A stretch of 64,000 bases of DNA from Thermoplasmata archaeon (GCA_049285595.1 JBAQAF010000039.1:6373-70372), one strand, 5' to 3'; counted from the stretch's first letter, positions 9,045 through 63,800 are shown. Notes: generated by a model not told the origin, from the sequence alone. Numbers and translations: made by a program.

Positions 9045-10366
9045 TGCCGGCGAGGGGTCGGCGTCCGATCGTGATCAAGTTCGGAGGGGCATCGCTCGCC
9101 GACGCGTCGCGCGTGGCGAACGACCTCCGTGCGCTCGGGGCCCCGTCCTCCCGCCTCGTGGTGGTCGCCTCCGCCCGGGAGGGGGTCACCGACCTGCTCG
9201 AGGAGGCGATCGCCCACCCCCGCTCGGCGAAGCGGCACGGGAAGATCCTCGAAGAGATCCGGCGACGTCATCCAGATCTCCCGCCGGCGGGTCGGATCCC
9301 CCTCGAACGGCTGGGGCGACTGTTCGACTCGCTCGAGCACGGACCGGCGCGTGACGCGCCCCTTGCGGACCGGATCCGCAGCCAGGGCGAGCGGCTCGCC
9401 GTGCACTGGCTCGCCGCGCGACTTCGAGAGGAGGGGATCCCGGCAGCGCCGGTCGAGGCCGACCACTTGGGATTGATCACCGACAACGCATACGGCGCCT
9501 CTTGTCTGATGCTCGACCGCTCGCGCGCGGCGGTCCGCCGCGGCCTCGGTCGCGTGATGGCTCGGGGCGTGGTGCCCGTCGTGACCGGCTACTTCGGCCG
9601 TAGCCTCGAGGGGCGGGTGGCGACCCTCGGACGCGGCGGCTCGGATTATGCGGCGGCCGGTATCGGCGCCCTCCTCGGCGCCTCCCGCGTCGAGCTCGTG
9701 AAGCGACACGTCGCGGTGTTTTCGGCGGACCCCCGGGACGTGCCGCGGGCGCGACCGGTCCCCGAGCTCTCCTATGAGGAAGCCGAGGAACTGGCCCAGT
9801 TCGGGGCGCGCGTGCTGCACCCCCTGACGATCGAGCCGGCCCGGACGGCGGGACTTACGCTCACTGTCCGGTCGTTCGACGATCCGACGATCGTGACCAC
9901 GATCGGGCCGGCGCGCGCCGCGCGACGGAACCGGGCGATGACGGTGCTCCGACCGCTGCGCCTCCTCCGCCTTCGAGTGCCCGGCGGCCGCCAGCGTCCG
10001 GGGATCGTCGCCGAGGTCGCGCAGCGCCTCAGCGCGGCCCACGTCAACGTCGTTCAGTTGTTCACTTCGTCCGCGCTCCTCTCCCTCGTCCTCGAACCGG
10101 ACCGGGTCGTGGCCGCGTTGCGCGCGCTCGCCCCGGTAACGCACGACGACGAGGCCGACGTCGAGGGCCCGTTCCGCGTCGCGCTGGTGACCGTGATCGG
10201 CGACGGAGTGCTCGACGACCTCGACCGACTCCCGGCGGCCGCGGTTGTCGGGGCCGAGGGGTTCAGCGCCACGCCCCGGGCGCTCTCCCTCGCGGTGCCC
10301 GAGGCCCGGGGGACGATCGTGCTTCGCGCCCTCCACAAGGCGCTCGTGGAGGACGCGGTCCCGTGA
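9044..10366 (+). CDS. Aspartate kinase
   Basis: The ATG at 9044 overlaps the asd TGA by 1 nt and gives 440 aa. 'IVIKFGGASLAD' is the N-terminal kinase motif, and the C-terminal part looks like an ACT domain. Confidence 0.8.
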   Translation: MPARGRRPIVIKFGGASLADASRVANDLRALGAPSSRLVVVASAREGVTDLLEEAIAHPRSAKRHGKILEEIRRRHPDLPPAGRIPLERLGRLFDSLEHGPARDAPLADRIRSQGERLAVHWLAARLREEGIPAAPVEADHLGLITDNAYGASCLMLDRSRAAVRRGLGRVMARGVVPVVTGYFGRSLEGRVATLGRGGSDYAAAGIGALLGASRVELVKRHVAVFSADPRDVPRARPVPELSYEEAEELAQFGARVLHPLTIEPARTAGLTLTVRSFDDPTIVTTIGPARAARRNRAMTVLRPLRLLRLRVPGGRQRPGIVAEVAQRLSAAHVNVVQLFTSSALLSLVLEPDRVVAALRALAPVTHDDEADVEGPFRVALVTVIGDGVLDDLDRLPAAAVVGAEGFSATPRALSLAVPEARGTIVLRALHKALVEDAVP

Positions 10367-11550
10367 TCGATCCGTGGACCCAGTTCACCGAGCAGGCGAT
10401 CTCCTCCGAGGTAGCGGTGTACTTCGAGCGCACCGGCAAGCGGGGGCAGAGGGGGACCGCCGCGTGGTCGGTGCGCCCCTCGGAACGGCGGGTGCTCGAC
10501 CGGCAGAGCGAGCTGACGGATCTCTCCGCGCGTTCGGGCCGATTCCTCGACCGGCATCCTCGGGGAGGGATCCTCGGTTACGTCGGTTTCGACGCGGTCG
10601 GACTGTTCGAACCGGCCCTGTGCCGATTTCCCGTCGGAACTCCGTTCCCGCTCGGGGAGCTCGCGTTCGTGGACCGCCTCGAGACCCGGGCCGTCCCGCA
10701 TCGGAGGCGGCGCGCCCTCGAACCTCGGCGCCCGCCGCGTCCGGTCGGGGACTCCCTCGGTAAGCGCCCGTTCGAGGCGGGCGTCCGGCGGCTGATCCGG
10801 GAGATCCGTGACGGCGAGGCGTTCCAGGTCGTCCTGGCGCACCGTCGGTCATGGAAGCGCCCGGCCGACCTCCTCGCCCGCGCCGGGACGCTCCGTGCGA
10901 CCGAGCGATTCTCGTTCTTCTACTTCCTGCGATTTGGCGATCGGGAGATCGTCGGCGCGAGCCCGGAGTCGGTCGTGGAGATGCGGGGCGGCGTCGGGTT
11001 CATCAACCCGATCGCCGGGACGATGCCCGCGACGCCGAGGGCGGGCCGCCTCCCACTCCCGAAAGATCCAAAGGAGCTCTCGGAGCACCGGATGCTGGTC
11101 GACCTGGCGCGCAACGACCTGGGACGGGTCGCACGGCCCGGCACCGTTCGCGTGCTGCAGACGGAACGACGGGAGAGGTACGCCCGTCTCGAGCACCTCG
11201 TCAGCGAGGTCGGAGGCCGGCTCGTCGAGGGGATCGGCCCGTGGGAGCTCCTGGCCGCGGCGTTCCCCGCGGGGACGGTCAGCGGGGCGCCGAAGATCCG
11301 GGCCACCGAGCTGTTGCGCCGCGAGGAGGATTCGTGGAGGGGTCCGTACGGCGGGGCCGTCGGGTGCCTGCGCCCCGGAGGGCGGGCCGATTGGGCGCTC
11401 GCCATCCGGACCGCGTTCGCCGCCGGGCCGACACTGTATACGGCAGCCGGTGCGGGGATCGTGCACCGATCTCGCCCGGCGCAGGAATACGAGGAGACCC
11501 TCGCGAAGCTCGAGCACCTCGAGTCGACGTTGCTCGGAGACGCGCCGTGA
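10363..11550 (+). CDS. trpE: Anthranilate synthase component I
   Basis: 395 aa with a GTG start (GTGA overlap). Chorismate-binding motifs 'GASPESVVE', 'INPIAGT' and 'EHRMLVDLARND' are present. The N-terminal region is short. Confidence 0.85.
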   Translation: MIDPWTQFTEQAISSEVAVYFERTGKRGQRGTAAWSVRPSERRVLDRQSELTDLSARSGRFLDRHPRGGILGYVGFDAVGLFEPALCRFPVGTPFPLGELAFVDRLETRAVPHRRRRALEPRRPPRPVGDSLGKRPFEAGVRRLIREIRDGEAFQVVLAHRRSWKRPADLLARAGTLRATERFSFFYFLRFGDREIVGASPESVVEMRGGVGFINPIAGTMPATPRAGRLPLPKDPKELSEHRMLVDLARNDLGRVARPGTVRVLQTERRERYARLEHLVSEVGGRLVEGIGPWELLAAAFPAGTVSGAPKIRATELLRREEDSWRGPYGGAVGCLRPGGRADWALAIRTAFAAGPTLYTAAGAGIVHRSRPAQEYEETLAKLEHLESTLLGDAP

Positions 11551-41718: not shown

Positions 41719-43725
41719 ATGAGCGATCTCGACACCACCTGCGTCAACACGCTGCGCTTCCTTGCGGTCGACGCGGTCGAGGCCGCGAAATCCGGACACC
41801 CGGGATTACCGCTCGGCGCTGCGCCGATGGCGTACGTGCTCTGGGACCGGTTCTTGCGCCACCACCCGGCGAACCCCGCGTGGGCCAACCGAGATCGGTT
41901 CGTCCTCTCCGCGGGCCACGGCTCCGCGTTGCTCTACGCGCTGCTCCACGCCACGGGATACGACCTGCCGATCGACCAATTGCACCAGTTTCGCCAATGG
42001 GGCAGCCGCACCCCGGGCCACCCCGAGCACGGCCTGACCCCGGGGGTGGAGGCGACCACCGGCCCCCTCGGGCAAGGATTCGCGATGGGGGTCGGGATGG
42101 CGATCGCCGAGCGGCGGCTCGCGGCCGAGTTCAACCGCCCGGACCTGCCGATGATGGACCACCGCACGTACGGCATCGTCTCCGATGGCGACCTGATGGA
42201 GGGGATCTCCTCCGAGGCCGCCTCGCTCGCGGGGACCCTCGGTCTCGGCAAGCTGGTCTACCTCTACGACGACAATCACATCTCGCTCGAGGGGCCCACG
42301 GAGTGGGCGTTCACCGAAAGCGTGCCGCGGCGGTTCGAATCGTACGGTTGGCAGGTCCTCTCGGTCGCCGACGGCAACGACCTCGGGGCGATCGAGCAGG
42401 CGATCGGCGCCGCCTGCGCGGAGACCGCTCGGCCGAGCCTGGTAGCGGTCCGAACGCACATCGGGTACGGCAGCCCGGTGGCGGACTCCCGGGAGGCTCA
42501 CGGAGAGCCGCTCGGGCCGGCGAACCTGAAGGCGACGAAGGAGACCCTCGGCTGGCCGCTCGAGCCGACGTTCCGGTTCCCCGACGACGCGAAGGCTCAC
42601 TTTCGCCGGGCGCTCGATCGGGGCCGACAGTGGGAAGCCGAGTGGAACGAGCGACGCACGAACTACGCTTCCGCGCACCCGGAGCTGTCGGCCGAATTCG
42701 ATCGCCGGCTCCAGGGAGCGCTCCCGAGAGGCTGGGACACAGGGCTCCCCTCCTTCCTTCCCAAGGACGGACCCATCGCCACCCGGGACGCCTCCCAGAG
42801 ATCGATCAACGGCCTCTCCGCGACGCTCCCCGGCCTCGTCGGCGGTGCGGCGGACCTCTCCCCGTCGACGAAGACGGTGATCGCCGGATCGCCCGATTTC
42901 TCCGCGCACGAGGCGGGAGGGCGCAACTTCCACTTCGGCGTGCGCGAGCACGCGATGATCGCGATCATGAACGGGATGGCGTTGCACGGAGGGGTTCTGC
43001 CGTACGGCGGGACGTTCCTGACGTTCTCGGATTACGCGCGCGGGTCGATCCGGCTCGCCGCCCTTCAGCAGACGCACGTCGTCCTCGTGTTCACCCACGA
43101 CAGCATCGCCATGGGGGAGGACGGCCCGACCCACCAACCGATCGAGCAGCTCGCGAGCCTGCGGGCGGTCCCCGGATTGACGGTGATCCGCCCGGCGGAC
43201 GCGAACGAGACGAGCGCGGCGTGGCGGCTCGCCGTGACGCGGCGCGGCCCGACCGCCCTGGTCCTGACCCGTCAAAAGATACCCGTGCTCGACTCCGCCC
43301 AGTACCCGATCGCCGCCGGAGTCCCCCGCGGGGGCTACATCCTCGCGGAGCCGGCGTCCGGGGCCCCCGCGGTCGTTCTGCTCGCGACGGGCTCCGAAGT
43401 GTCGATCGCGCTCGACGCCCAACGACTGCTGGCCGCTCAGGGTGTCGGCGCCCGCGTCGTGTCGCTCCCCTCCTGGGAACTGTTCGAGGCGCAGGACGTC
43501 GCGTACCGGAACGGAGTGCTCCTCCCCGGAGTGCCGAAGGTCTCCGTCGAGGCGGCCTCCAAGTTCGGGTGGGATCGATACGTAGGACCCAACGGAGAGT
43601 CGATCGGCCTGGACGGGTTTGGCGCCTCCGCTCCTGGCCCGGTAGTGATGCGGGAGCGCGGCATCACCGCGGAGCACATCGTCCGGGCCGCACTGCGCTG
43701 GTCGGGGCGGGGCGCGCGCCCATGA
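41719..43725 (+). CDS. tkt: Transketolase (full-length, single polypeptide)
   Basis: 668 aa with 'SGHPGLPLG' and '[18 protein letters not shown]'. Confidence 0.95.
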
Positions 43726-45383
43726 TCCTGATCGACCCCGGGTCGTCGGCGCTTGGGCCGGATTCCGCCCCGGTCGCCGCGCGACTTCGAGATTGGGACC
43801 GGGACCGGGTCGCCGAGCGACTCTGGGCGGCCGACCCGACGCTCTGGCCGAACGCACCGGCCGCGGATGTCGCTAACCGCACCGGCTGGCTCGCCTTGCC
43901 CGAACAGATGCGATCCGAGGTCCCAGGACTCCGGTCGTTCGCCGAGGGGGTCCGCGCGGACGGAACTCGGCACGTCGTCCTGCTCGGCATGGGGGGTTCG
44001 AGCCTGGCTCCCGATGTCCTGCGACGGATGTACGGACCCCGACCCGGCTTTCCGGAGATGATCGTCCTCGACAGCACGCATCCGGACGCCGTGCGGGGCG
44101 TCCGGGACCGGATCGACCCGGCGCGTTCGTTGTTCGTCGTCTCGAGCAAGTCCGGCACCACCACCGAGCCGCTCGATTTCTATCGGTTCTTCCGGAACGC
44201 GGTCGAGAACGCCCGCGTCGACCCGAGCCCCCACTTCGCGGCCGTTACCGATCCGGGCTCGCCGCTCGACGGCCTGGCGACGAAGGAACGGTTCCGAACG
44301 GTCTTCCGCGCAGTGTCGACCGTAGGGGGACGCTACTCGGCGTTGACGATGTTCGGGCTCGCTCCCGCGGCCCTCCTTGGCGTCAACCTCGACGAACTGC
44401 TCGCCCGCGCCGGACGGATGGCGGACGCGTCGGGTGCCACGGTCCCGGCGACGGCCAACCCGGGACTCTCGCTGGGGGCGGCCCTCGGAGAGGTCGCCGC
44501 CCGGGGTCGCGACAAACTCACGATGTACGCGGGCCCCTCGGTCGGAGCGTTCCCGATCTGGGCCGAGCAGCTCGTCGCCGAGAGCACCGGAAAGGAGGGG
44601 CGGGGGATCGTGCCGGTGGTCGGGGAGCCGTTCGCCGCTCCCGCGACGTACGGCAACGACCGTCAGTTCGTGGAGTTACAGTCGACCTCAGCGCCCGACG
44701 CGCAGCTCGCGGCGCACACAGCACGTCTCGAAGCGGCCGGGCATCCGGTCCTTCGCTTCTCCCTGGGCGAGACGGCCGACGTCGGTCAGGAGTTCTTCCG
44801 CTGGGAGGTCGGGGTCGCCCTCGCGGGGGCGATCCTCGGGATCAACCCATTTGACCAGCCCGACGTGGAGCTGGCCAAGCAGCTCGCCCGCGCGGCGATG
44901 GCGCGACCTGCCGGCCCTGCCGCGTCGCCCGAGGTGCGGGAAGAACGTATCGGCGAGGGCCCGGCCCTCACCGACGCGCTCGCGCGATGGCTCGGGTCTG
45001 CCCGACCGCGCGACTACGTCGCTCTCCAGGCGTACGTCGCGCCGACCGAACCGGTAAGCGCGGCGCTCGACGCGCTCCGTCAGGTCCTTCTTGCGCGCAC
45101 GCGTCTCGCGACAACCGTGGGTTTCGGACCGCGCTTCCTTCACTCGACCGGTCAGCTCCACAAGGGAGGCCCCAACACAGGACTGTTCCTCCAGATCGTC
45201 GACACGCCGGCCGCCGATCTCGAGGTTCCGGGCGCGGGGTACACCTTCGGTCAGTTGATCCATGCCCAATCTCTCGGAGATTACCAGGCGCTCCAGCAGA
45301 AGGGCCGCCGAGTGCTTCGCGTCCAGTTGGGCACGGACGTGGCGGCGGGCTTGGAGAAGCTCACCGAGGCGTGTCGTGGCTGA
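43722..45383 (+). CDS. pgi: Glucose-6-phosphate isomerase (type found fused to transaldolase in some bacteria)
   Basis: The ATG at 43722 (ATGA overlap with tkt) gives 553 aa. 'DPTLWPN...NRTGWLALP', '[13 protein letters not shown]' and '[13 protein letters not shown]' (SIS domain) are present. Confidence 0.8.
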
Positions 45384-50024: not shown

Positions 50025-53000
50025 TTAGGCAGCCTCGCGACCCGAGACGGTCGCGACGAGTCCCGCGTGGCTCGCGAGCGCGGTAGACAACCGTGTGACC
50101 GCCGGCCCGAACGACTGGTGTTCGGGGGCGAAGGTCACGTGGATCGTCTGCGCGTGCGGCGTGTGCGACGGCAGGACGGGGGCCACCACGATCGGGGACG
50201 CGGGAGCTCCCGTGCCCGTGTCGCCGCCGACCACCGGGATGGTGTACGTGTACGTCCCGTTGGGCAGCTCGAACTTGATCGTGGCCGACGTGCTGCTCAG
50301 GGTGATTGGCGATCCTGGCACCGGGCCGGTCACCGTAACGGACCAGCTCGTGTGCGCCGCCAACCCGTGCTCGCTGAAGGTGATCGCCCCGGCGTTAAGC
50401 TTGAACTTAATCGCCTTGTTCACCGTGACGCTACCGACCGACAGACCGCCGTGGGCCGGAGCAGCGTCGTAGATCGCGGGCTTTGTCACTTCATACTTGT
50501 ACGGGGTACCCTTGGCGATGGTGAACGTCACGGTGCTGCCCGTGGTCGTGGCCGCCGAGCCGGCCGGGCCGCCCGTCCCCGACGGAACCAGGGTGATGCC
50601 CCAGGTCGTCAGAGCCGGCAGTCCGGGCCACGGTACGGACGTCACTTCGTTGAAGTTCACCGTCTGCAGCTTGCCGAAGTGCAGGGTAATGGTCGTGGTC
50701 GCAGAGATCGGGGCCGATCCGTAGAGCGTCCCGTGGGGTCCCGTCACCTTGGCGAGTCCGTAGCCCGCAGGCGCGGTCACGGTGAAGTCCAACGTCCCGT
50801 TGGGGGCGTTGAAGGGCACCGAGGTCGCAGGTCCCGTCACGTTCGCGGACGTCTTTTCGGTCGAGGGAGAGCCCGCGGTCACCGTGAACGCGGTGCCGGC
50901 ACCCGCCGTGATGCCCGACTCCTTGAACGTCACCGACTGTTCGAACGGAACGTAGCGGACCTGGAACCAGACCGCATCGCCACCGCCGCCGATCATGACG
51001 TTCGTGTTCAGGGAGCTCGGGTCAATCCACGGAGCCGCCGAGGAGACGGCGTTCGCCTGGCCGTTCCACACGTACATCCCCAAGGCGTTGGTGATGTGCG
51101 TGATCAGGTTGTAGTCGAGCGTCCGGTCCGGTCCTACTGGCAATCCCGCCGCGATGCCCATCCAGTTCACCGCGACCGTGTAGGCGACTCCCTGGCACTG
51201 GGTGGTCAGGCGGCCCAGAGCGGGGTTGTCGACAGAGTGGGCCCAGTAGTCGAGGTCCTGGATCGTCGAGCCGTAGTGGCCGCACGCCGAGATGTTAGCG
51301 CTCGTCTGGGTGCCTTCGCCAACCATTCCCGAGAAGGCATCCGCCGCCGTGTAGGTGGCGTTCGGGCCAACCTCGGGGACGGTGTAGTCGGTCGGGTCCG
51401 GATAGTCCGGAGCCCAGCCCGAGCCCGTCTCGGAGATCAGGGGGTTGGTGCCGGGCGCGTTGAAGGCGATGTCCAGGAACTGGTCGAAGGTCAGGTCAAA
51501 GGTGTACGGCGCAAGCGCGCCACCCGTGATCGTGGTGATCTCCGCCATCCAGTCCGCAATCGCGGCGTCATCACTCGGATCTGCGTCGAGACCCGCGATC
51601 GGGAACGTGCACGGAGTCGCATGCGAGCACGAAGCGAGCTGCGGATCGTAGTAGGACGAGATCGGGTTATTCGCCTGGGCCCACCACCACGCGGAGCCAC
51701 CGACATCCGACGGGTTCAGGTCAGGGTCCGTGTTCGGGAATGACACGTTCGTCGGGTAGTAGTTCCCGAGACCGACGGGAATCGCGCCACCCGCATTGAA
51801 GTCGAACTGGATACCGTCGACAGTCCGGATGGTGTTCTCGACCGTGGTGTAGGGGTAGGCCTCGACGTAGAACTCACGCAGTGCCGGGTTGGTGAAGAAG
51901 TTCACCGGGATGTTGGGCAGGGGCTCCGACGGGAAGTAGGTCGAGAATTCGGACGGGCTCCATCGGAGGTTGACCGGCGTGAAGAACTGCGTAATGGTCG
52001 GGTTGATAAAGTAGTTCAGGTCGCCCTCGGACGCCAGCAGCTTCAGCGTCGTCGTGTGCGCCGCCTCGATGCCGGCAAAGTCCGCGATGTGCGCCCGATA
52101 CTGGCTGATGCCGAACGAGTCGTCGGGCTCCCAATAGACCTGGACGTTGTGGATGAACGCGCTCGGCGCGGGGTCGCAGTAGCCACCATACGTCGCCGCG
52201 ACACCAACGCCCGAGCAGCCACCGGGCTGCAGGTACGCGGGGTTCTCAGCGAGCGTGTAGCCTGCGCCGGGGATGACACCCGCGTAGTACGGGCCGGATC
52301 CGACCATGTTCCACTGAACACCGCCATCGACGATCGGCGAGGTGACGGCCGTCTCTTCGAACGAGTCCCACGAGAGGGGGTCTACGCCCGCCAGGTATGC
52401 CGCCCACGCTGAGCTGTCGGTCGAGGTGATCAGGTGGCCCGGGGTGCTGCCCGGGAGTCCGCAGGGACCGTCCCCGTGGGACGCCCCGAAGTTCGCGAAG
52501 CCCGGCATCGCGGCGCCTTCATACGAGAACCAGCCGCACGGCTCAACGCTCGCGCCGAGGTTGTCCGCCACCAGCTGCAGGAAGTAGGGCCAGTCAGATC
52601 CCCCACCGTTTGCGACGAAGGTGACGCAACCGTGTTCGTTAGCGATCGCCGACGCCGGACAGTAGGCCGTCGAGTTGACGAGCATCGAGCTCAGGATGCT
52701 GTTGGCCGTGGTATTGAACGGGTAGTGAAGGCCACCGTCGTAGACGGGGCTTCCGTACTGGAGCAGCGACTGCGCCTGGATCCAGCCCGGGTTCTTCCCG
52801 ACGTAGGGAACTTCCGAGAAGGCCAGCGTCCGCGCTAGGCTGAACATGACGTCCGACGGGTAGACTCCCCAGGACGCGTGCGTGGTCGGGTCGTAGAACG
52901 AGGCTTGCTTGTCGATGACAAACGTCCAGTAGATCGGCTCACCCGCAAAGGGTCCGGCGCCGTCAGCGACCAGGCTGGAGCCGTAGTCGGACGTGCACTG

Positions 53001-53441
53001 AGCGTCGCCCGGAACGCAGGTCGCCACCGTGGGAACGAACGTCGTCGTCGAGTTCCCATTGTAGTTGACCAGCGTCTGGTAGACGTTGATGATCGGCTCG
53101 TAGCTCACCGTGTCGTACGCAATGGACGGGTCTTCAGAATTGGAGCCCCCCGGTGCCACTTCGTAGACATCAAGTGTGCCTGCGTGTGGCGAGTGGGGGG
53201 ACGCTTCAATCGCCCCGCCTACTGGTACGGCCGATGCGGTCGTCTGCTGGACGGCTGCCCCCTGCGCACCAGTGGTATGCGTTACCACCGGTGCGGCAGG
53301 CGTAACCGACGCGGCGCTCAAGGCGCCGGCGGCGACGGGCAACGCCATGCTCAAAACGAGCACGAACGTCGCGGCAATGACTGCCGTCCGTCTTGTCGCA
53401 ATCTCTCCCACCGAATAAGACCCTCCCGGCAATTGGGTCAC
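50025..53441 (-). CDS. ABC transporter substrate-binding protein (family 5, peptide/nickel type) with a long C-terminal repeat extension
   Basis: 1138 aa with a GTG start, the signal/TM 'AVIAATFVLVLSMALPVAAGA' and an SBP5-like core ('YDTVSYEPIINVYQTLVNYNG'). The last 330 aa or so are repeated beta-sandwich modules ('VTFKESGITAG', 'ITFSEHGLAAHTSWSVTVTG', 'LPNGTYTYTI'). Confidence 0.8.
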   Translation of the reverse strand: MTQLPGGSYSVGEIATRRTAVIAATFVLVLSMALPVAAGALSAASVTPAAPVVTHTTGAQGAAVQQTTASAVPVGGAIEASPHSPHAGTLDVYEVAPGGSNSEDPSIAYDTVSYEPIINVYQTLVNYNGNSTTTFVPTVATCVPGDAQCTSDYGSSLVADGAGPFAGEPIYWTFVIDKQASFYDPTTHASWGVYPSDVMFSLARTLAFSEVPYVGKNPGWIQAQSLLQYGSPVYDGGLHYPFNTTANSILSSMLVNSTAYCPASAIANEHGCVTFVANGGGSDWPYFLQLVADNLGASVEPCGWFSYEGAAMPGFANFGASHGDGPCGLPGSTPGHLITSTDSSAWAAYLAGVDPLSWDSFEETAVTSPIVDGGVQWNMVGSGPYYAGVIPGAGYTLAENPAYLQPGGCSGVGVAATYGGYCDPAPSAFIHNVQVYWEPDDSFGISQYRAHIADFAGIEAAHTTTLKLLASEGDLNYFINPTITQFFTPVNLRWSPSEFSTYFPSEPLPNIPVNFFTNPALREFYVEAYPYTTVENTIRTVDGIQFDFNAGGAIPVGLGNYYPTNVSFPNTDPDLNPSDVGGSAWWWAQANNPISSYYDPQLASCSHATPCTFPIAGLDADPSDDAAIADWMAEITTITGGALAPYTFDLTFDQFLDIAFNAPGTNPLISETGSGWAPDYPDPTDYTVPEVGPNATYTAADAFSGMVGEGTQTSANISACGHYGSTIQDLDYWAHSVDNPALGRLTTQCQGVAYTVAVNWMGIAAGLPVGPDRTLDYNLITHITNALGMYVWNGQANAVSSAAPWIDPSSLNTNVMIGGGGDAVWFQVRYVPFEQSVTFKESGITAGAGTAFTVTAGSPSTEKTSANVTGPATSVPFNAPNGTLDFTVTAPAGYGLAKVTGPHGTLYGSAPISATTTITLHFGKLQTVNFNEVTSVPWPGLPALTTWGITLVPSGTGGPAGSAATTTGSTVTFTIAKGTPYKYEVTKPAIYDAAPAHGGLSVGSVTVNKAIKFKLNAGAITFSEHGLAAHTSWSVTVTGPVPGSPITLSSTSATIKFELPNGTYTYTIPVVGGDTGTGAPASPIVVAPVLPSHTPHAQTIHVTFAPEHQSFGPAVTRLSTALASHAGLVATVSGREAA

Positions 53442-54431: not shown

Positions 54432-54533
54432 TGCTCCCGGCGGGAGTTTCCCCGGGCGGCGCGAACCGCCCGGTTTTGAACCCGCGTCAGAGGCTCGAGA
54501 GGCCTCTATCCTTGACCACTAGACTACGGGAGC
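54432..54533 (-). tRNA. tRNA-Glu (anticodon CUC) with a 29-nt intron in the T-loop (59/60)
   Basis: Folded by hand. Acceptor stem is GCUCCCG/CGGGAGC (7 bp) and the anticodon stem is GAGGC/GCCUC with loop C-U-CUC-G-A. The T-stem is GCGGG/CCCGC, the discriminator is A, no CCA is encoded, and TTTT lies downstream. The gene is 102 nt, or 73 nt after intron removal. Confidence 0.85.
54446..54474 (-). other. tRNA intron (bulge-helix-bulge) in the tRNA-Glu T-loop
   Basis: The intron is ACCGGGCGGUUCGCGCCGCCCGGGGAAAC. An inner 8-bp helix CCGGGCGG/CCGCCCGG is flanked by the 3-nt bulges AAA and ACU, which are separated by UUCA/GGAA (3 Watson-Crick pairs plus A.G). Confidence 0.7.
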
Positions 54534-55203: not shown

Positions 55204-55659
55204 GTGACCCCCCCGGTCAAGGCCCGCAGCGGCCACCTTCTCCTGGAGTCGAAGCGATCGTTCAAGGACCTCGTCCGGGTCTACCCCGAGATCCATCGTC
55301 GGGTCGTGGAGATGAACCGGCCGTTCGTCAAGGAGTCGGACCCGTTGTCGCCCGAGGCGCTCCTCGAAGAGAACCTGCGGGATCTGAAGCGCGACAAGAA
55401 GCCGGTCGGATACAACCGGCAGGACGCCTTCGGCCTCCGGCTGATCTTCCCGATCACCGACGATCGACGGATCGAATTCTACTTCGCGAAGCCGTCGCGC
55501 TGCCAGGAGGTCGTCCAGGTGACCGAGCAGGTCTCCACGCTCCTGCGTCGACGGGGCCTGAAACACAACGTGGAGTACGACCGGCTCCCGCTCGGGCCGG
55601 TGCGCTTTCCGCCGGGGATGACGGTTCCCCCGGCCGGTTCCGGACTCTCCTCGCGCTGA
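55204..55659 (+). CDS. Hypothetical protein
   Basis: 151 aa with a GTG start and a balanced composition (K/E/F/Y/V), unlike the overlapping R/G/P-rich antisense ORFs. No motif was recognised. Confidence 0.45.
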   Translation: MTPPVKARSGHLLLESKRSFKDLVRVYPEIHRRVVEMNRPFVKESDPLSPEALLEENLRDLKRDKKPVGYNRQDAFGLRLIFPITDDRRIEFYFAKPSRCQEVVQVTEQVSTLLRRRGLKHNVEYDRLPLGPVRFPPGMTVPPAGSGLSSR

Positions 55660-55670
55660 CCGTCGACGGT

Positions 55671-58600
55671 CTACGACGACGGCGGCCGCCGGAACGGCCA
55701 GAACGGTGTCGCGGCCGGGGCGGCCGCCGCCGCAGTCGCCTCCCCGACTACGACGCCTTCCGCCTGGAGCAGCTTGAGGGCATCGCGCGCCTTCTCCAGG
55801 GCCGCCGGATAGTCGTTCGCCCGAAGGCGGAGCGATTCGGTGAGCAACGCGCGAGCCTTCGTGGTGTCGATCTCCCGCTCCTCGGCGCGGGCGAGCGCGG
55901 CGTCGATCAGGTAGTGCAGGTTCGTCAACTCCCGATGGAGCGATTTGCGCAGGTTCAGATCCTCTTCCACCTTCAGCAGTCGGGCGCCGCCTTCCAGCAC
56001 GCGGCCCGACGTGAGGAGATCGTCGGCCGCCTGGAGCTGCTCCTTCACGGGACCCACGCTGACGTGCAGACCCTCCTCCGCGAACGTCACCTCCGACGCG
56101 ACCTCCTTGCGGCGGCGTTGCAGGGGGCCCCGGACGCTCTCTTCGAGCGCGGCGCTCGCGCGGGCGAGGTGCGCGGTCGCCTCCCCGAGCCGGCCGGAGT
56201 CGACGGCCGCGCGCGCCTCGCCGAACGTCTGCATCGCGGGAGTGGTGTCAACCCCGAGGCGCTCGCCGACCCACAGGCGGTCCCGCAACGTGGCGACCGC
56301 CCGCAGCACGACCTCCCGGCGCTGACCACGGACGACCTCGAGCTCGGCGTGGGCGAGGCGGAGCGCTCCGCCGACGTCCCGGGAGGCTCGCAGCGTCCCG
56401 AGCTTCTTCGCGACGTCCTCGCGGCGGGACACTTCGGCGGGGGGGACGGGGCCGGTCTCCTTCGCGTCGGCCTCGACCTCCCTCCAGCGGCCATCGATCG
56501 TCTCCTCGAACAGGCGTCGGGCCGAATCCTCGGCCTGCACGATCGTGCTGCGTGCCTCCGTCCACTGGTGGGCGCGGGCCGCCGCCTCCGCGCTCGCGAC
56601 GAGCGCCTCGAGCGGCTCGAGCTCCGCAGAGAGCCCCTCGCCTCGGGCCGCCTCGGCCTGGCGACGCAGCTCCCCCAGCGGCGTCGCGAATGTCCGGTCG
56701 ATCGCCCAGCGGGCCATCTCGGTCGCTTCGCGGGCGCGTCGAACGGCGGGAGAGTAATGGCCGGCGGCGATCTCCTGACGCGCCTCGGCGAGCTCGGCCG
56801 AGGCGTCGGTCGCTTCCGCCCCGAGCGATTTCGCCTCGCTCAACTGATGTTCGGCGACCTCGATCGTCTCGCGACCCCGTCGCAGGCCGTCGCGGGCCGC
56901 GGCGACGACCTCGTAGACGAAGATCGTTCGCTCGAAGACGTCGGGATATGACCCTTTGGCGAACGACGACTTGCCGTTGCGCAGCGCATCCTGCGCCTCG
57001 GTCGCGACGACCCCCTCCGCGAGCGCCGTGGCGATCGCCTTCTCGGCCGCGACCAGCGACCCTTCGGCGAGCCGGTGCTGGAGGTCGGCCTGTTCGAGCT
57101 CCCGCTCGCTGCGCGCCGCGAGCTGCACGGAGTCGAGCGGACGGCCCTCGTCGAGCGACATCCTCGCTTGGTGCAGGAGATTCTCGGCGACCGAGGTGTT
57201 CGCCCCGTCGCGCCGCAGCTGCGTCACGGTCGCCTGGAACCCAGCGAGCGTCTTCGAGACGTGCCGGTACGTCGCCTGGTGGAGTTCCCGCTCGAGGGGA
57301 CCGGCGAGCTCGACGACGCGAGCGTACTCCCGCCCGGCGAGGAGGGCGTCGAACCGCTCCCCGCGGGAGCGCAGATCGCCGACGTCGACCCGCAGGAGGT
57401 CCGCCTGAGCGAGCGCCTCGTGCACCCGCTTGGCGGCCCGCTCGGCGTGTTCGACGAACCCGCGGGTGCTGATCAGGGCGCTGCGGACCTCGTCGATCAG
57501 CGCGGCGGCGCCCGTCGGCACGGGGAGCGCGACGCGGCGGCGCGCTTCGGCGAGCGGCGTCACGATCTTATCGAGCGGCACGCCTGCGGAGCGGGCGATG
57601 TCGAGGTCCCGTTCGAGCGACCGGAGGTTCTCGTCGAGGATCGGGCGAAGGATCGCGAGCAGCTCGTCATGCAATAGCATCGACCCGGTCCGGGTCGCCT
57701 CGGGCGCCGCGGTCGTCCGCTCCGTTCGGAGCGCTTCGAGGCGGTGGGCCATCGGTTCGACCGGGGCCCCCAGCTGTCGTCCTTCCTCGATCAGCAGACC
57801 GACCTCCCCGAGGAGGCGCTCGGTCTCGACCCGCGCGCTCTCCGCGGAGAGGCGTGACTCTACGTCGTCGAGGACGGTGCGGGCCTGGTCGAACCGCAGC
57901 GCCGAAAGGTCCTCTCGGGCCTGCTTGAGCGGCTCGTAGAACGTCGTCGGGTCGGCTCCGCCGGCGCGGATCCGCCCGAGCTGATCCTGCAGACGGGAGA
58001 TCCGTTCGACGATCGTATGAGCGGCGGCGCGGCCCCGGCCCGCGGACTCTTCCAGCTGGGAGGCGGTGCGGTACGCGTCGAGGTAGCGACCGTCCCGGGC
58101 CGACGCCTGCGCTTCGTCCAACAGCGGTCGAAGCGTCGTGAGGTCGAGGCCGATCGGCTCGAGCTCGACGAGGGCGAGCTTCGCGTGGGAGATCGCCTCG
58201 TCCGCGCGCAGGAGCTGCTGCTGGCGCGCGCGCGTGCGGATCTCCTGCGACGCGTGGGACGCCTGGACGAAGTCCCCCATGTTGAAGATCTGCTGGACCT
58301 CGTCGATCTGCCGCTGGATCTCGTCGCTCGCCCCGCCCATCGAGTCGAGCACCCGGACCTCGGCCTCGAGACCCTCGACCAGCGCCGAGGCGTGTACGCC
58401 GAAGACGGCGGAGAACTCCCGCTCCGCGCGATGCAGGCTCTCGACGGAGGCGACGATGTCCTGCTTCACGCGGAGCGCGACGTCCGCGTCGGCGAGCAGC
58501 CGCCGCACCGGGGCGGTGAGCGCCGCGTCGGAGATCTCGACGAACGACTTCTCCATCTCCTCCACGCGGCGCGCCACGTACGGACCCGCCGAGGTGCGCA

Positions 58601-60167
58601 GCTCGACCTCGTATCGGGCGATCCGTTCGGCCGCCGCGCCGAGATCTCCGGCGTCGAGCAGGGTGCGCGCCTCGGCGAGCAGCCCCTCGGTCTCCCCCGA
58701 AACGAACCCGTGCTCATGGGCGTACGACCGGGTCCGCTCGAGGGTGCTCCACCGCTCGACAAAGAATCGGAGCGCCTCCTTGCCGGCGACCCGGATCGCC
58801 TCTTTGAGCGCCTCCTTCGCGGCCGGCACGTCCGCCCGGTCGAGGAACGTCCGGACGCGGGCGACGGAGGCGTCGTACTGCTCGCTCGGGAATCCAGCCG
58901 AGCGGAATCGAACGAGCATCTCCTGCAACGTGGCGAGCTCTCCGCGCGATGAGTCGAGGTCCTCGGTGAGCCCGCTGACCCGGTCGAGCGCCTCCTGCGC
59001 GGCCGCGAGCGCCTCGGAGTAGATCTTCAGGCGAAGGGCTTCGCGCGCGCGGTTCATCGCGGCGAACACCTCGCTCGGGTCCCGGCCGAGCCGTCGGGCG
59101 CCTGCGATGCGGGGCCGGACCTCGTCGAGCAGACCAGCAACGACGGTGACGATCGGCTCCTCAGCGGCGATGCGCGCATCCGAGAGCAGCCCGGCGATAT
59201 CGCGGGGCGCCGTCGTCGGCAGCCGCGCGAGCGCGGTCTCGACCGCCGCGATCGCGGCCGCGGCGTCGACCTCGAACTCCCCGACCGTCACCAGCGATCC
59301 TCGAAGCCCCTCGAGGATCTGCCGGCACCGTTCCCGGAGCCCCTCGGCGACCTCGGGGATCGCCGCCTCGATCGCCCCGACGGTCTCGGGCCATCGGTCG
59401 ATGCGGGCGACCTCGTCCGCGCGCAGGGCCGCGTCGAGCGGACCGGTCGGCGCTCCGAGCTCCTCCGCGGTGCCGCGCAGACGCTCGGCGTTCTCGCGGG
59501 TGGATCGGTGGCGCTCGACGGCCTCGGGGAGACCGCTCGTCAGGGCGCGTTGGACCGTCGTGAGCGCGTCGGCGAGCGCGTCGTCCCGGGCCGAGACGAC
59601 GACCTCGGGAAGACCCCGCTCGAACTCGGTGAGCCGGACGCCCTCGAGCCCGGCCCATTTCGCCACCGTAAGGGCACGCCCCCGTACCCCTTCGAGGTAG
59701 CCGGTCGCGGCGTCCCGGATGCCGTCCTCGACCTTCGTCAGGCGAGCGAGCGAATCGGTCCAGGCCGCTTCGGCCGGGGGGTGCGCGAGCGCCTCGAGCT
59801 CGGTCGCGAGCTCCGGCGGAAAGGAGATGCCGAGGCCGGTGAGCCGACCGAGCGACTCGCCGGTACGCCGGCGCCGATCCTCGAGCAGGCCCGGGACGGA
59901 CGAGGCGAGGTCGGCGAGCAGCCCCTGGGACGCGGTCTCGACCTGGTCCCAGTCGGAACGGCGGACGAGCTCGCGGATCTCGTTGATGCGGGTGAGGGCG
60001 CTGGGCGGCACGATCCCCAGGCGCTCGAGCTGGCCGACCCGCTCCTCGGCCTCCTTCAGAGCGACCTCGGCGGTCTGGCGCTTCTTGCGCAGAGCCTCGG
60101 CCTTTTCCTGAAGGATCCGGGTCAGCCGGGACGACGGTAGAGGTCCGACGCCTCCCGGACCGGACAC
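55671..60167 (-). CDS. Giant all-helical tandem-repeat protein (about 60-aa TPR/MIT-like units), function unknown
   Basis: 1498 aa with a GTG start preceded by GGAGGT (5-nt spacer). No TM, signal peptide or enzymatic motif was seen. I counted about 18-20 repeats by eye carrying the signature L..A...L..G.[YFWL]..A. It is A/E/R/L-rich. Confidence 0.75.
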   Translation of the reverse strand: MSGPGGVGPLPSSRLTRILQEKAEALRKKRQTAEVALKEAEERVGQLERLGIVPPSALTRINEIRELVRRSDWDQVETASQGLLADLASSVPGLLEDRRRRTGESLGRLTGLGISFPPELATELEALAHPPAEAAWTDSLARLTKVEDGIRDAATGYLEGVRGRALTVAKWAGLEGVRLTEFERGLPEVVVSARDDALADALTTVQRALTSGLPEAVERHRSTRENAERLRGTAEELGAPTGPLDAALRADEVARIDRWPETVGAIEAAIPEVAEGLRERCRQILEGLRGSLVTVGEFEVDAAAAIAAVETALARLPTTAPRDIAGLLSDARIAAEEPIVTVVAGLLDEVRPRIAGARRLGRDPSEVFAAMNRAREALRLKIYSEALAAAQEALDRVSGLTEDLDSSRGELATLQEMLVRFRSAGFPSEQYDASVARVRTFLDRADVPAAKEALKEAIRVAGKEALRFFVERWSTLERTRSYAHEHGFVSGETEGLLAEARTLLDAGDLGAAAERIARYEVELRTSAGPYVARRVEEMEKSFVEISDAALTAPVRRLLADADVALRVKQDIVASVESLHRAEREFSAVFGVHASALVEGLEAEVRVLDSMGGASDEIQRQIDEVQQIFNMGDFVQASHASQEIRTRARQQQLLRADEAISHAKLALVELEPIGLDLTTLRPLLDEAQASARDGRYLDAYRTASQLEESAGRGRAAAHTIVERISRLQDQLGRIRAGGADPTTFYEPLKQAREDLSALRFDQARTVLDDVESRLSAESARVETERLLGEVGLLIEEGRQLGAPVEPMAHRLEALRTERTTAAPEATRTGSMLLHDELLAILRPILDENLRSLERDLDIARSAGVPLDKIVTPLAEARRRVALPVPTGAAALIDEVRSALISTRGFVEHAERAAKRVHEALAQADLLRVDVGDLRSRGERFDALLAGREYARVVELAGPLERELHQATYRHVSKTLAGFQATVTQLRRDGANTSVAENLLHQARMSLDEGRPLDSVQLAARSERELEQADLQHRLAEGSLVAAEKAIATALAEGVVATEAQDALRNGKSSFAKGSYPDVFERTIFVYEVVAAARDGLRRGRETIEVAEHQLSEAKSLGAEATDASAELAEARQEIAAGHYSPAVRRAREATEMARWAIDRTFATPLGELRRQAEAARGEGLSAELEPLEALVASAEAAARAHQWTEARSTIVQAEDSARRLFEETIDGRWREVEADAKETGPVPPAEVSRREDVAKKLGTLRASRDVGGALRLAHAELEVVRGQRREVVLRAVATLRDRLWVGERLGVDTTPAMQTFGEARAAVDSGRLGEATAHLARASAALEESVRGPLQRRRKEVASEVTFAEEGLHVSVGPVKEQLQAADDLLTSGRVLEGGARLLKVEEDLNLRKSLHRELTNLHYLIDAALARAEEREIDTTKARALLTESLRLRANDYPAALEKARDALKLLQAEGVVVGEATAAAAAPAATPFWPFRRPPSS

Positions 60168-60245
60168 GCGCTACCTCCCGTACGCCCCGCCTCCCTACGT
60201 TTTAAGAGAAGGTGCGCGGGCAGCAGTTTCATGCCGCACCTACCC

Positions 60246-60678: not shown

Positions 60679-60830
60679 GATCTTCTCCTCGGAGGCCCAC
60701 GCAGCGGAACGGTGGCATAAGAGTTGCTCCGATGCGGAATTCCTCCGGCGCGGTAGGTCCCTGGCTTGCGACCGAGGGTTTATTCCCGCCCAGGTCGCTC
60801 GATAGACGGCGGGGGACGTAGGCGGGAGCG

Positions 60831-63800
60831 ATGCCGGAGGAGGCGCGGCAGTTCACCGTTCGCTCGCTCGAGCCGGACGTCCGGGCCCTGTGGCGGAGCC
60901 GACGTCTCCCCCCGCCGGGCGGACTCCTCGGTCCGAAGGACGGGGCGATCGTTCGCCAGTTCGAGGGGTCGATCGCGCCCGGAGATCCCCCCGAGATGAT
61001 CGCTCATCGCGCGGTCGCCGCCGACGTCGACGCGCGGCACCTGATGCTGTCGGGCCGTGGGGTCTCGGGGACGCTGCGCTACGAGGTGCGCCGCGAGGAG
61101 ACGGAGCCCAATCCGATCGGACCGTTGCTCGAGACGCTGGGCGTCTGGACCGGCGGGGCGGCCGACCGGCCGTGGGACTCGGCCGACCGCATGACGGGGA
61201 TCCAGGCGATCGTCTCGCGCCTGGCCCGTCGGGAGATCCTCGCCGCTCGCGACGGCCCCCTGCGGCTCTGCCTTTCGTGCCGGGTCCCCCGGACCCCCGA
61301 GCGGATCATCTACCAGAAGGAGGTCGGCGACACGTTCCTGGTCCGGTTCCCCCTGCAGGGTACCGACCCTCCGGTCGACGCTCTGGTCTGGGTCGATGCC
61401 CCCTGGCGGCTTCTCGGCGCGAGCGCCCTCCTCGTCCATCCCGAGGTCCCGTACGCGGTCGTGGAGTACCGCCACAAGGGGTCGAGCGCGCTCCTCCTCG
61501 TCTCCCGCGGCGCGCTCGATCGATTGCGCGCCTGGCTGCCCGACGTCGAGCTCGAGGTCCGGGAAGAGCGGCCGGGCCGCGAGTGGGTGGGCCGGCCCTA
61601 CGCCTACCCGCTCCGCCATGAATTCCCCATCGGGGGAGGGCTCGACCCGCCCGCGGGAACGGTACAGGCGGACCTCGAGGTCGGCGACACCGGGACCGGG
61701 ATCGTGCCGCTCGTCCCGGGCCACGGACCGACCGACGCGGAGATCGCGGACCGCCTGGGGATCACCGGATGGCCCCTGCTCACCCCGAGCGGGTTGCTCG
61801 ACCCGACCTTGATGCACAAGTACTCGGGGCTCGATGTGGAGACGGCCAACGAGTTCGTCTCCCGGGACCTGACGGAGAGCGGCGCGGTCCTTGCCCGACT
61901 GCGGGTCGTCCGGGGGGTCCCGTACTGTGCCATCTGCGGCCACCGGATGGTCTGGGTCCCGGGGCGGGCCTGGTGCCTCGAGCCGACCCGGCTCCCGGCG
62001 GAGCAGAAGGACCGGTACGCCCACCTGTTGCCGCGGGATCGACCGATCGGCCAGATCGAGATCGCCCGCTGGCCGGTGAGCGAGACGAGTGCCTCCCGCG
62101 ACCCCAGCGCGATCTCGCTGCTCGAATGCGCGCGATGCGAGCGCCTCGACGCCCCCGACGGGCCGATCGAATGTCCGTGCGGCGGGACACGACGGTTGGT
62201 CGCTCGGCGGCTCCTTCCATCGATCGGCGGGGCGTTCGGCGCCTGGTCGCGCTGCGATCCGCTCCCGCGGGCCGACACGGTCCGCATCTATACCAACGAA
62301 CGTCGGCGCGTTCCCGCGCTCGTCCACCACCTCAGTGCGATGACCGGGATCGACGCGTCCATTTCCGAGATCGGTCTCACGCTCGTTCCGACCGTCGCCC
62401 GGATCGACCTGGCGGAGCTCGTCGCCGCGCACGGCGCGGATGCGGTCCGTGCCGCGTTCGTACGCACGGCCGGCGCCGGCGGTTCCACGACGACGTTCGA
62501 GGAACGGTGTCGGCAAGAGGAGGAGCGGTGTGCGCGATTCTTCTCGCAGGCCGAGGCCCTCCTAGAGCATTGCACCCCCGAGATCTTGCGAGAGGGGGCT
62601 CGACCCCCCGATGCGGCGGCGCGGGACCTCGAGGTCGAGGACCGAGCGATCCTCGCCCGGTGGGCGCGCACGCACCTGCGCGTACTGGCATCGTACGACC
62701 GCTGGCAGCCGGACACCGCGCACCGTCAGCTGTTCCGATTCCTCGAACGCGACCTCCTCGAGTATCTCGAGATCACCCGGCCGCGCCTCGACTTCGCCGG
62801 CTCCCCCGCCACGAAGCGGGGGGCCCTGCGCACGCTCGTCTACCTGTTCCGCGCGGCGGCGATCGCGCTCGCCCCGATCGCCCCGTTCACGGCCGACACG
62901 GTGCACCGGCGTCTCCTCGGGGAACCTCGGAGCCTGTTCGAATCGACCGACCTCGGGGGAGACCGGACGCTAGTCAACGAGGAGCTGGCTACCGCTTGGG
63001 ACCGCTGGCATGCGGTGATCGCCTCCGCCGACACGTTCCGCCGCGATCATCACCTCGCGTCGTCCACGCAACTCCCCCTCGCGGCGATCGTCTTCCGGGA
63101 CGAGGAGACGGCGGCCCGGCTTCGGGCGGACCGCGCGACGATCGAGCGGCTCGCGAGGATCGCCCGGCTCGAGGTGACGAGCCCGCAGGTCCCGTGGGCA
63201 GCCCGCCAACGGCGACTCGTTCCCGTGGAGAGCGAGATCCAGCGCGCCTATCCGGCGCTCGCGACGCAGATCGTCCACCTTCTCGAGCGGATGCCGCCTC
63301 GACGGAGTACCGAGTCGCCCGGGCGCGAGCTCACCGTCTTCGTCCACGGGGTGCCCCGTACGATCACCCCGGAGATGGTGACGACGGTCGACACGCTCCC
63401 GGAGGGGTACGCGCCGATCCCGTACGGGCCGGGGGAGATGTACGTCCAGCCGCCGCCGAAGGGCGAATCGATCGCAACGCCCCCGCCGCTCTCCTCGGAC
63501 GCCTTTTGGGTAGTCCGGTGGGTCCGTCGCCGGCTCGCGGCCGCCCCCGCGGCGGGCGATCCCGCCGGACACGTCGCGATCGTCTCCGCGGTCGATCCGC
63601 TCGCCGCCGAGCTTCGAGAAAAATCCGCCGCGATCGCGGAGTACCTCGGGCTCCGTGAGCTGCGCATCGTCGGCAACGTCCCCGAGTCGCTTCCGCACGC
63701 TCAGATGGAGGGCCGGACCCGAACGGGGGCGCGGTGGACGGTCTCACTGCCGGGGATCGCGGCCCACCACCGCCTACCGAAGCGTCGAACCGCCCGTTCG

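Follow-up and report, generated by a model that had tools for sequence, protein, structure and literature searches.

Chains of small helical bundles are an established design for elongated proteins. In the rods of spectrin, alpha-actinin and dystrophin, the last helix of each repeat extends without interruption into the first helix of the following one, the bundles have heptad-type cores, and spectrin gives mechanical support in eukaryotes. The same principle is known from EzrA of Firmicutes, a prokaryotic protein with spectrin-like helical-bundle repeats, and the Ebh (FIVAR-GA) "helical string" of Staphylococcus aureus is a very long rod of linked three-helix bundles (approx. 60-70 residues each) that share a long helix; Ebh is a bacterial protein located outside the cell in association with the cell wall, and its repeat is a double bundle of 126 aa. 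Two other helical modules are the TPR, which has a period of approx. 34 residues and two equal helices of approx. 14 residues stacked into a superhelical solenoid, and MIT, a TPR-like three-helix bundle. To our knowledge, few archaeal structural proteins have been described beyond FtsZ/CetZ, SepF, actin-like proteins, ESCRT and a handful of recent ring components, and almost nothing is known of the structural proteins of Thermoplasmatota outside a few acidophiles. Here we analyze a gene for a giant protein of 1,498 amino acids (aa) in a stretch of 64,000 nucleotides from a Thermoplasmata archaeon (GCA_049285595.1 JBAQAF010000039.1:6373-70372; hereafter the window), for which a preliminary description had proposed about 20 tandem TPR- or MIT-like units of 60 aa and a role as a large scaffold or cytoskeleton-like element. 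Our results point to a chain of 23 small three-helix bundles that share their long helices, and homologues in other lineages suggest that this chain may serve in cell division and/or chromosome segregation.

The gene is the longest open reading frame (ORF) of the window, which has a G+C content of approx. 70%, and both the length and the coordinates reported initially (55671-60167, minus strand) were exact; all six peptides quoted as examples of the repeat were also found in the protein. The protein is rich in Ala, Leu, Arg and Glu, carries a net charge of -42 and a single Cys, and has a Gly-rich, polar N-terminus. It had been described as lacking transmembrane segments and catalytic motifs, and we likewise found no transmembrane segment (highest Kyte-Doolittle mean over 19 residues, 1.38), no amphipathic helix and no catalytic motif in searches of the protein against Pfam and NCBIfam. 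Comparison with two orthologues gave ratios of nonsynonymous to synonymous substitution rates (dN/dS) of 0.18 and 0.30, i.e., the gene is under purifying selection.

The BLOSUM62 autocorrelation of the giant protein, judged against 200 shuffles, had maxima at lags 7 and 62 (z = 5.6 and 4.9, respectively), which were echoed at lags 124-126 and 185-189. Self-alignment of a profile hidden Markov model (HMM) built from a family alignment of 121 sequences found a shift of 62 residues across 1,080 columns (E = 6e-14) as well as at least 10 more shifted alignments close to multiples of 62, so that a significant internal period was obtained by both approaches. Overall, 23 units could be aligned in register with a mean period of approx. 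63 aa; the tandem helical periodicity proposed initially was thus real, while its count of about 20 units and its period of 60 aa are replaced by 23 and 62-63, respectively. When each unit was scored with an HMM from which it had been left out, 13 of the 23 units reached 11-28 bits (a level reached by 0 of 100 shuffles), and the other 10 scored weakly (2-7 bits) and were recognised chiefly via their position and predicted structure. The proposed signature "G-x-[YFWL]-x2-A" exists, confined to the hairpin of the short helix and the following long helix, and its occupancy is uneven, with the aromatic or large hydrophobic residue in 78% of units, Ala in 60% and Gly in just 35%. No DNA-level repeat of approx. 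189 nt was detected in the gene, in agreement with the proposed divergence of the repeats at the nucleotide level.

Structure prediction with AlphaFold2 was performed on residues 1-800 and 700-1498, using alignments of 54 sequences, and the mean predicted local distance difference test (pLDDT) scores were 89.2 and 88.8 for the two halves. In these models, 24 helices of approx. 36-43 residues strictly alternate with 23 helices of approx. 12-19 residues, connected by loops of 3-7 residues, and residues 1-12 and 1475-1498 are disordered. The order of elements within a unit is the C-terminal half of a helix of approx. 40 aa, an "L-G-h-D/P" loop, a helix of approx. 15 aa, a "G-D" turn and the N-terminal half of the next helix of approx. 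40 aa; we refer to the three helical segments as H1, S and H3.

Co-variation was analyzed by mean-field direct-coupling analysis (DCA). For this, homologues were divided into non-overlapping units, each with the short helix at its centre (4,246 units; 63-column HMM), and neighbouring units were concatenated into 4,058 pairs (effective number of sequences [Meff], 2,141). Among the 60 strongest couplings with a separation of ≥10, 57 were within a unit, including 18 S-H3, 14 H1-S and 4 H1-H3 couplings. The index sums of the H1-S couplings (constant at 40-47) and of the S-H3 couplings (78-85) are those of antiparallel helices, and the H1-H3 couplings follow a parallel offset, the strongest being 6-50 (rank 11 of 1,540). 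The two unit copies in the concatenated alignment, taken as replicates, agreed with r = 0.82. Heptad-like core columns (7/10/14/17, 27/31/34/38 and 43/46/50/53/57) showed a spacing of 3-4 in all three segments. Because DCA revealed H1-S, S-H3 and H1-H3 contacts, it is well supported that each unit is a closed three-helix bundle which shares its long helix with the next bundle; as each helix of approx. 40 residues spans two bundles, the bundles string into one continuous chain. Taken on its own, this structural conclusion, i.e., a chain of 23 small three-helix bundles, is highly probable. Given the short loops and the helix lengths of 40 and 15 residues, each unit would advance by approx. 20 helix residues (approx. 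3 nm), and a chain of 23 units would, on this geometry, measure approx. 70 nm if straight.

These data also bear on the idea of a filament-forming coiled-coil protein of the intermediate-filament or coiled-coil-rich-protein (CCRP) type. The heptad periodicity at lag 7, the all-helical composition rich in Ala, Leu, Arg and Glu, and a weak Foldseek likeness to SMC, MukB and tape-measure proteins would fit such a filament. However, the helices do not exceed approx. 43 residues, conserved Gly/Pro loops recur every ~63 residues so that no uninterrupted coiled-coil segment is present, and the couplings represent intramolecular bundle contacts with antiparallel signatures; this class is thus already largely refuted and the most improbable of the explanations considered.

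Searches of Pfam, NCBIfam and PDB sequences with the whole giant protein yielded nothing significant, which agrees with the initial view that the family has no name in Pfam or NCBIfam. Weak matches of the 23 units searched in isolation were to YfdX (E = 0.0019), PknG_TPR (0.005), TPR_2 (0.015), DUF4398 (0.065) and TPR_4 (0.31), with all TPR-type matches below the cutoffs. No match to spectrin (PF00435) was found for the whole protein or for isolated units. A profile of the unit compared against PDB sequences matched mainly designed helical proteins (E ≥ 0.004), with ApoE among the weak matches. Foldseek searches of both AlphaFold2 halves against PDB, and of the first half against BFVD, returned nothing at E ≤ 0.001; the best matches were to the dynein tail (0.04), MukB/SMC, designed helical repeats, PRC1, EzrA, alpha-catenin and tape-measure proteins.

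A more serious alternative, and the one closest to the preliminary description, is that the giant protein represents a generic TPR-type interaction platform, i.e., a stretched solenoid that would bind a variety of ligands on its concave surface and would not be tied specifically to the cell cycle. The hairpin pattern A...L..G.Y..A...A..A, with its TPR-like arrangement of small and large residues (Gly or Ala at the turn, an aromatic residue, Ala), argues for this alternative, as do the matches of single units to TPR_2 and PknG_TPR, a unit of the distant relative P0211 that passes both TPR_2 (35.1 bits vs. a cutoff of 27) and ANAPC3 (43.7 vs. 27.2), and the naming of some relatives as TPR proteins by some sources. 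On the other hand, no TPR or MIT model matched the whole protein at E ≤ 1, just 2 of the 23 isolated units were weakly of TPR type, and MIT (PF04212) was found neither among the isolated units at E ≤ 10 nor in the PDB profile search. The period is 63 rather than 34 residues; the unequal helices of 15 and 40 residues force a stagger of approx. 25 residues per unit in place of in-register stacking; and the H1-H3 contacts close a three-helix bundle, with bundles chained by shared helices instead of stacked as separate MIT modules. Foldseek found no TPR solenoid for either half, even though the PDB is rich in them, and the phylum-wide conservation of both individual repeat positions and length (see below) would be unusual for such a platform. 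We therefore consider the TPR alternative unlikely, and the idea of TPR or MIT modules in series did not hold. Overall, it is well supported that the TPR-like hairpin signature is the only detectable tie of the giant protein to the spectrin, EzrA, TPR or MIT families.

The chain of bundles resembles spectrin rods in its continuous helices, heptad-type cores and elongated form, and possibly also in a scaffold role, but differs from them in that the unit has 63 aa as compared to approx. 106, the return helix has just approx. 15 residues, the hairpin is TPR-like, neither PF00435 nor a significant Foldseek match was found, and the protein is archaeal and restricted to one phylum. EzrA (4UXV) carries an N-terminal transmembrane anchor and approx. 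5 repeats (approx. 560 aa), whereas the giant protein has 23 repeats and no such anchor; the two show no sequence homology, and EzrA appeared in the Foldseek list only at E = 5.0 and 7.4 (TM-score 0.10-0.17). The resemblance to Ebh is a lead only, as Ebh was absent from both the Foldseek and the PDB-sequence matches. As the same chain design is here built from a different, 63-residue unit, it looks like a case of convergent evolution of a rod scaffold. While the chained-bundle principle itself is known from spectrin and EzrA, we found no paper on the 63-residue unit, the family, or a length-conserved architecture with repeat-by-repeat orthology across a phylum, and these appear to be new.

Word-indexed searches with the window protein and a 43%-identical relative retrieved approx. 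250 clusters, all from uncultured Thermoplasmata and with lengths of approx. 1,360-1,533 aa. The gene was present in 116 GTDB species representatives, all of them Thermoplasmata metagenome-assembled genomes (MAGs) from soils and peat, including genomes of Candidatus Lutacidiplasmatales and the AcS/SubAcS genomes, which belong to the published description of that order (PMC9287336). That description mentions neither the giant protein nor S-layers or division genes. Within the order, protein length is tightly held (median, 1,494 aa; 5th-95th percentile, 1,458-1,516). All genomes carry one copy except MAG JOPF047, in which the gene occurs on two contigs (L009 and L054; 57-58% identity to the query), which reflects either a pair of paralogues or mixed binning.

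Residues 300-1498 were then used in an exhaustive phmmer search of 1.84 billion representatives. This yielded 164 relatives (94 at E ≤ 1e-10) along an identity gradient from 63% to approx. 18%, mostly collinear with the query. Among the 150 matches listed, 68 had 1,380-1,640 aa and ten were longer, with up to 3,129 aa. All named relatives were MAGs assigned to Thermoplasmatota, Thermoplasmata or "Methanobacteriota", and the family thus appears to be restricted to Thermoplasmatota and to extend beyond the Lutacidiplasmatales-type order of the window. One of the relative clusters comes from a cultured organism, Aciduliprofundum boonei T469; its protein, Aboo_0924, is annotated as hypothetical, as "RING finger protein" or as "TPR domain protein", and the phmmer match to the representative of this cluster had E = 1.8e-8, and intermediates matched far more strongly. 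Searches of the literature on prokaryotic RING fingers or spectrin-like proteins in archaea, on RING proteins of Thermoplasmatota and on Aboo_0924 found nothing relevant, and no paper on Aboo_0924-like giant proteins was found. Labels carried by other relatives ("TPR repeat protein" [JGI], "HEPN domain protein", "VapI", "PTS IIB") are misleading, and a proper definition of the family could take their place; the precomputed label PF26154 on two relatives was discarded, since it was not reproduced on rescan.

Homology between the window protein and the RING-bearing giant proteins of other Thermoplasmatota is well supported by profile comparison: hhalign of the window family against 35 distant members (the RING clade) gave a probability of 100% (E = 2e-101), and the loop positions of repeats 1-19 corresponded one-to-one between the two. 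Repeats 20-21 of the window protein have no counterpart in the distant member P0225, and repeats 22-23 correspond to its last two. The Aboo_0924-like giants share with the window protein the N-terminal L..LQEKA(K/E)E helix, the 63-aa unit, repeats 1-19 and a similar length, but differ in their C-terminal ends (see below) and in lacking, as judged from P0225, the two extra repeats. The one-to-one correspondence across lineages indicates that the amplification predates their divergence and that each repeat has kept its own identity; with relatives of only ~17% identity preserving repeats 1-19, and with no repeat left at the DNA level, the ancient internal amplification proposed initially is borne out. 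Together with a total length held at approx. 1,450-1,640 aa, the orthology of repeats across the phylum suggests that length and repeat-specific surfaces matter. Some of the longer relatives (P0241, P0247, P0248, P0251 and P0302; 2,018-3,129 aa) have up to 37 detectable units, and therefore repeat number is not fixed in every lineage; some of these bear the same C-terminal Cys finger as described below.

The best-conserved repeats within the order were 6 (86%), 10 (81%), 9, 23, 16 and 14, and the pattern of conservation suggests that the surfaces of repeats 6, 9-10, 14-16 and 23 may be of particular importance. The motif VL..I..SR.KF..AK..G.DI......LN.AR of repeat 6 is kept in distant clades, and this repeat is a candidate partner-binding surface. 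In repeat 16, the block QLAxRSExELExxDLQ is equivalent to the near-invariant LAMQSExExERxxLQ of the distant clades, with E1017, E1019 and Q1024 invariant in two distant-clade alignments (A4 and the narrower A5). The first long helix, which begins at residue 14 in the AlphaFold2 model (residues 1-12 having pLDDT <50), bears within the first 30 residues the superfamily-wide motif SSRLTRILQEKAEALKKKRQ, whose counterpart in relatives at 18-30% identity is YLKxxQLxKQLEEKAKE.

In contrast to the array, the C-terminal module differs between clades. Many distant members terminate in a CARDB-like beta domain and/or a Prok-RING_1 finger (C4HC3), followed by a basic tail, and many have basic-hydrophobic extreme C-termini of the KKRVALKI type. 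The window protein instead ends in a linker and the peptide PFWPFRRPP, in which W, P, F, R, R and P are each ≥90% conserved; the strict form FWPF[KR][KR]P occurs in 74 of 149 full-length close relatives. A Cys finger, searched as two CxxC motifs near the C-terminus, was found in none of these 149 relatives. The peptide is a candidate docking or membrane-contact motif.

The RING finger raises the alternative that the array is the substrate-recruiting arm of a RING E3-like ligase or zinc-finger machine, with the Lutacidiplasmatales form as a degenerate, RING-less remnant. This would account for the Prok-RING_1 match at the C-terminus of Aboo_0924 (54.8 bits vs. a cutoff of 29.1) and for the finger in many relatives, including the C4HC3 pattern in the consensus of both A4 and A5 and the two or more CxxC motifs in the last 90 residues of 38 of the 68 full-length-like representatives. 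However, the finger is absent not only from the window clade but also from intermediate clades at 27-35% identity; the finger-less window protein, with its single Cys, is under purifying selection and strongly conserved across 116 species; and the neighbourhoods inspected contained no genes for E1, E2 or ubiquitin-like proteins. This alternative is accordingly very unlikely. As the window and intermediate clades lack the finger, the helical array appears to be the invariant functional core of the family.

If the terminal peptide contacts the membrane, the giant protein could also act as a strut of a membrane skeleton, placed under the cytoplasmic membrane and tethered by its C-terminus (PFWPFRRPP here, tails of the KKRVALKI type or a RING in relatives); such rods would support the cell mechanically or determine its dimensions independently of division. 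The spectrin-like chain topology, the narrow length range within the order, the flexible linker with its conserved aromatic and basic peptide, the basic-hydrophobic C-termini of distant relatives and the fact that in most lineages the gene is solitary and has an upstream region of its own are all consistent with such a strut. The protein has, however, neither an amphipathic helix nor a transmembrane segment, the Pro-rich peptide may equally well be a protein-docking motif, the neighbourhoods do not indicate envelope genes, and the linkages to ftsZ and smc described next point elsewhere; a strut of this kind is improbable, about as much so as the TPR platform.

Within the order, the gene lies downstream of the gene for aIF5A in 71 of 79 loci and convergent with an orphan 151-aa ORF in 72 of 79. 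Neither gene has a counterpart beside the distant relatives, so that the conserved neighbourhood suggested initially holds within the order and does not extend beyond it. The 151-aa ORF, which had no Pfam, NCBIfam or PDB match, was considered as a functional partner and dropped as evidence given its absence beside distant relatives. It lies at 55204-55659 (plus strand), with its stop codon 11 nt from that of the giant gene, and shows approx. 78% identity across the 72 loci, in which it is always convergent. On the near-identical ENA contig L080, a 190-aa gene call at 9977-10549 overlaps the giant gene, and the annotation there looks wrong.

Beside the distant relatives, the giant gene is usually alone behind a gap of 90-460 bp, and two linkages stand out. 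In A. boonei, an RHH gene abuts ftsZ, which is followed after 44 bp by the giant gene on the same strand; the co-transcription of the RHH gene cdrS with ftsZ2 represents a conserved archaeal cell-division locus (PMC7439475), and the A. boonei pair matches this operon type in gene arrangement. In a large soil and sediment lineage, smc-scpA-scpB lies directly upstream on the same strand, with scpB directly upstream of the giant gene in 45 of the 74 distant loci for which upstream sequence was available; the giant proteins of the scpB-linked loci are 27-100% identical to each other (median, 43%). In two further loci (L092 4503-6767 and L095 4183-6600), a gene for an RFC small subunit located 1.5 kb upstream is followed by a gene for an FKBP-type isomerase and then by the giant gene, a neighbourhood of replication or cell-cycle flavour. 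No ESCRT genes were seen in the neighbourhoods inspected. On contig L086 (1-3021), genes for Roadblock/LC7, two small Ras/Arf-like GTPases, V4R and a KaiC-like ATPase lie 3-6 kb upstream of the giant gene, a cluster resembling MglA/MglB-type polarity modules.

Since relatives are encoded directly behind RHH-ftsZ in A. boonei and behind smc-scpA-scpB in the soil lineage, a role in division and/or segregation is suggested, and our preferred reading is that the giant protein is a soluble, cytoplasmic, rod-like scaffold probably tied to one or both of these processes. With structure and function combined, we assign this reading a probability of roughly 0.4. It would be a rod of 23 bundles with long helices running through neighbouring bundles, the conserved repeats and the C-terminal peptide would be docking sites, and the rod would most likely, by analogy with its relatives, serve cell division and/or chromosome segregation as a structural spacer or adaptor. 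Its function may be comparable to that of EzrA, the spectrin-like FtsZ regulator of Firmicutes, which acts on the FtsZ ring, a relative of the giant protein being encoded 44 bp downstream of ftsZ. The class "scaffold or cytoskeleton-like" proposed initially thus still appears to be the best functional class, with relatives as the guide to function.

Several observations weigh against this reading. As to structure, the predicted template modelling scores (pTM) of the two AlphaFold2 halves were only 0.42 and 0.43, couplings between bundles were weak (3 of the 60 strongest), and 10 of the 23 units were individually below significance at the sequence level. As to function, both linkages occur in distant relatives only, and neither ftsZ nor smc, scpA or scpB was found within ±8 kb of the gene in the window or in the 79 order loci. 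The ftsZ linkage represents a single lineage. The metagenome loci were drawn with two peptide patterns from alignment A5, i.e., the sample is pattern-selected and not unbiased, and the smc-linked loci also share a downstream aromatic-lyase gene, so that the smc linkage may in part reflect general synteny inertia in one lineage. The neighbours of other relatives are unrelated, i.e., FTCD (15 loci), GGR/FAD, DHH, integrase and FBPase genes.

A bolder version of the same reading, which we regard as doubtful, would make the giant protein a Thermoplasmatota-wide cytoskeletal "mini-spectrin", a rod of approx. 70 nm that physically connects the FtsZ ring, the nucleoid organised by condensin and possibly also the membrane, or sets the spacing between them. 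The fixed count of position-specific repeats would then act as a molecular ruler, and the C-terminal module (RING in many lineages, PFWPFRRPP here) as an exchangeable anchor. If true, this would be the first spectrin-type scaffold of archaeal division or segregation, evolved from a TPR-like hairpin independently of spectrin and EzrA. In any case, the giant protein belongs to a conserved family of approx. 1,500 aa that spans a phylum abundant in soils, sediments and vents, and it may be one of the parts still missing from the picture of archaeal cell architecture; the ftsZ and smc-scpAB linkages of its relatives provide a concrete, testable hypothesis, with A. boonei as a cultured organism that carries an orthologue.

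Features of the giant gene and its upstream region are listed in Table 1. The TATA box and the GGAGGT Shine-Dalgarno element reported initially are both present. The TTTATA sequence recurs ahead of the gene in at least 17 of the 40 orthologous loci examined, despite the background of ~70% G+C, and is a putative promoter element; a Shine-Dalgarno-like motif was found in 10 of the 40 loci, a count that is affected by imperfect start calls.

Table 1. Features of the giant gene, in coordinates of the window
Feature	Position	Strand	Basis
Putative archaeal TATA box (TTTATA), approx. 80 nt 5' of the start codon	60246..60251	-	sequence read
Shine-Dalgarno-like element (GGAGGT), 5 nt ahead of GTG	60173..60178	-	sequence read
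Giant gene, 1,498 aa plus stop codon, GTG start	55671..60167	-	complete ORF; conserved N-terminus (MSGPGG...); dN/dS
N-terminal segment (residues 1-30): disordered Gly-rich stretch, then start of first long helix	60078..60167	-	pLDDT
Array of 23 tandem units of approx. 63 aa (residues 31-1474)	55746..60077	-	repeat detection, AlphaFold2, co-variation
Repeat 6 (residues 344-405), most conserved unit, 86% mean identity in the order	58953..59138	-	conservation
Repeats 9-10 (residues 529-652), 70% and 81% in the order	58212..58583	-	conservation
Repeats 14-16 (residues 842-1031)	57075..57644	-	conservation in the order and distant-clade consensus
Disordered C-terminal tail (residues 1475-1498): Ala/Pro/Thr-rich linker and terminal peptide	55674..55745	-	pLDDT <50
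Terminal peptide PFWPFRRPP (residues 1488-1496), at the place of the RING in distant relatives	55680..55706	-	conservation

Some other features of the window were also observed. An ORF at 41880-45383 (plus strand; 1,167 aa) was considered as a possible SMC and rejected, as it contains only a phosphoglucose-isomerase (PGI) domain (residues 689-905); this ORF is probably over-extended at its 5' end, as is common in DNA with 70% G+C, and genes for G6PD and 6PGD are located near its equivalent on the matching contig L080. The gene at 50025-53441 (minus strand) encodes a protein of 1,138 aa that is hydrophobic in an N-terminal segment and in its C-terminal tail and contains stretches rich in Thr and Ser; it has no Pfam match, was found in just 10 of 79 related loci, and is a candidate surface or S-layer-like protein. 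ARAGORN predicted a tRNA-Glu(CTC) at 54446-54533 (minus strand), which at 88 nt is long for a tRNA and may contain an intron or an extended arm. Finally, the region upstream of the aIF5A gene (60780-62516, extending up to approx. 63800) is conserved in approx. 68 of 79 loci; in tblastn, scores were obtained for several ORFs that overlap one another on both strands, and the genes called there on the matching contig encode proteins of 327 and 673 aa with no Pfam match.

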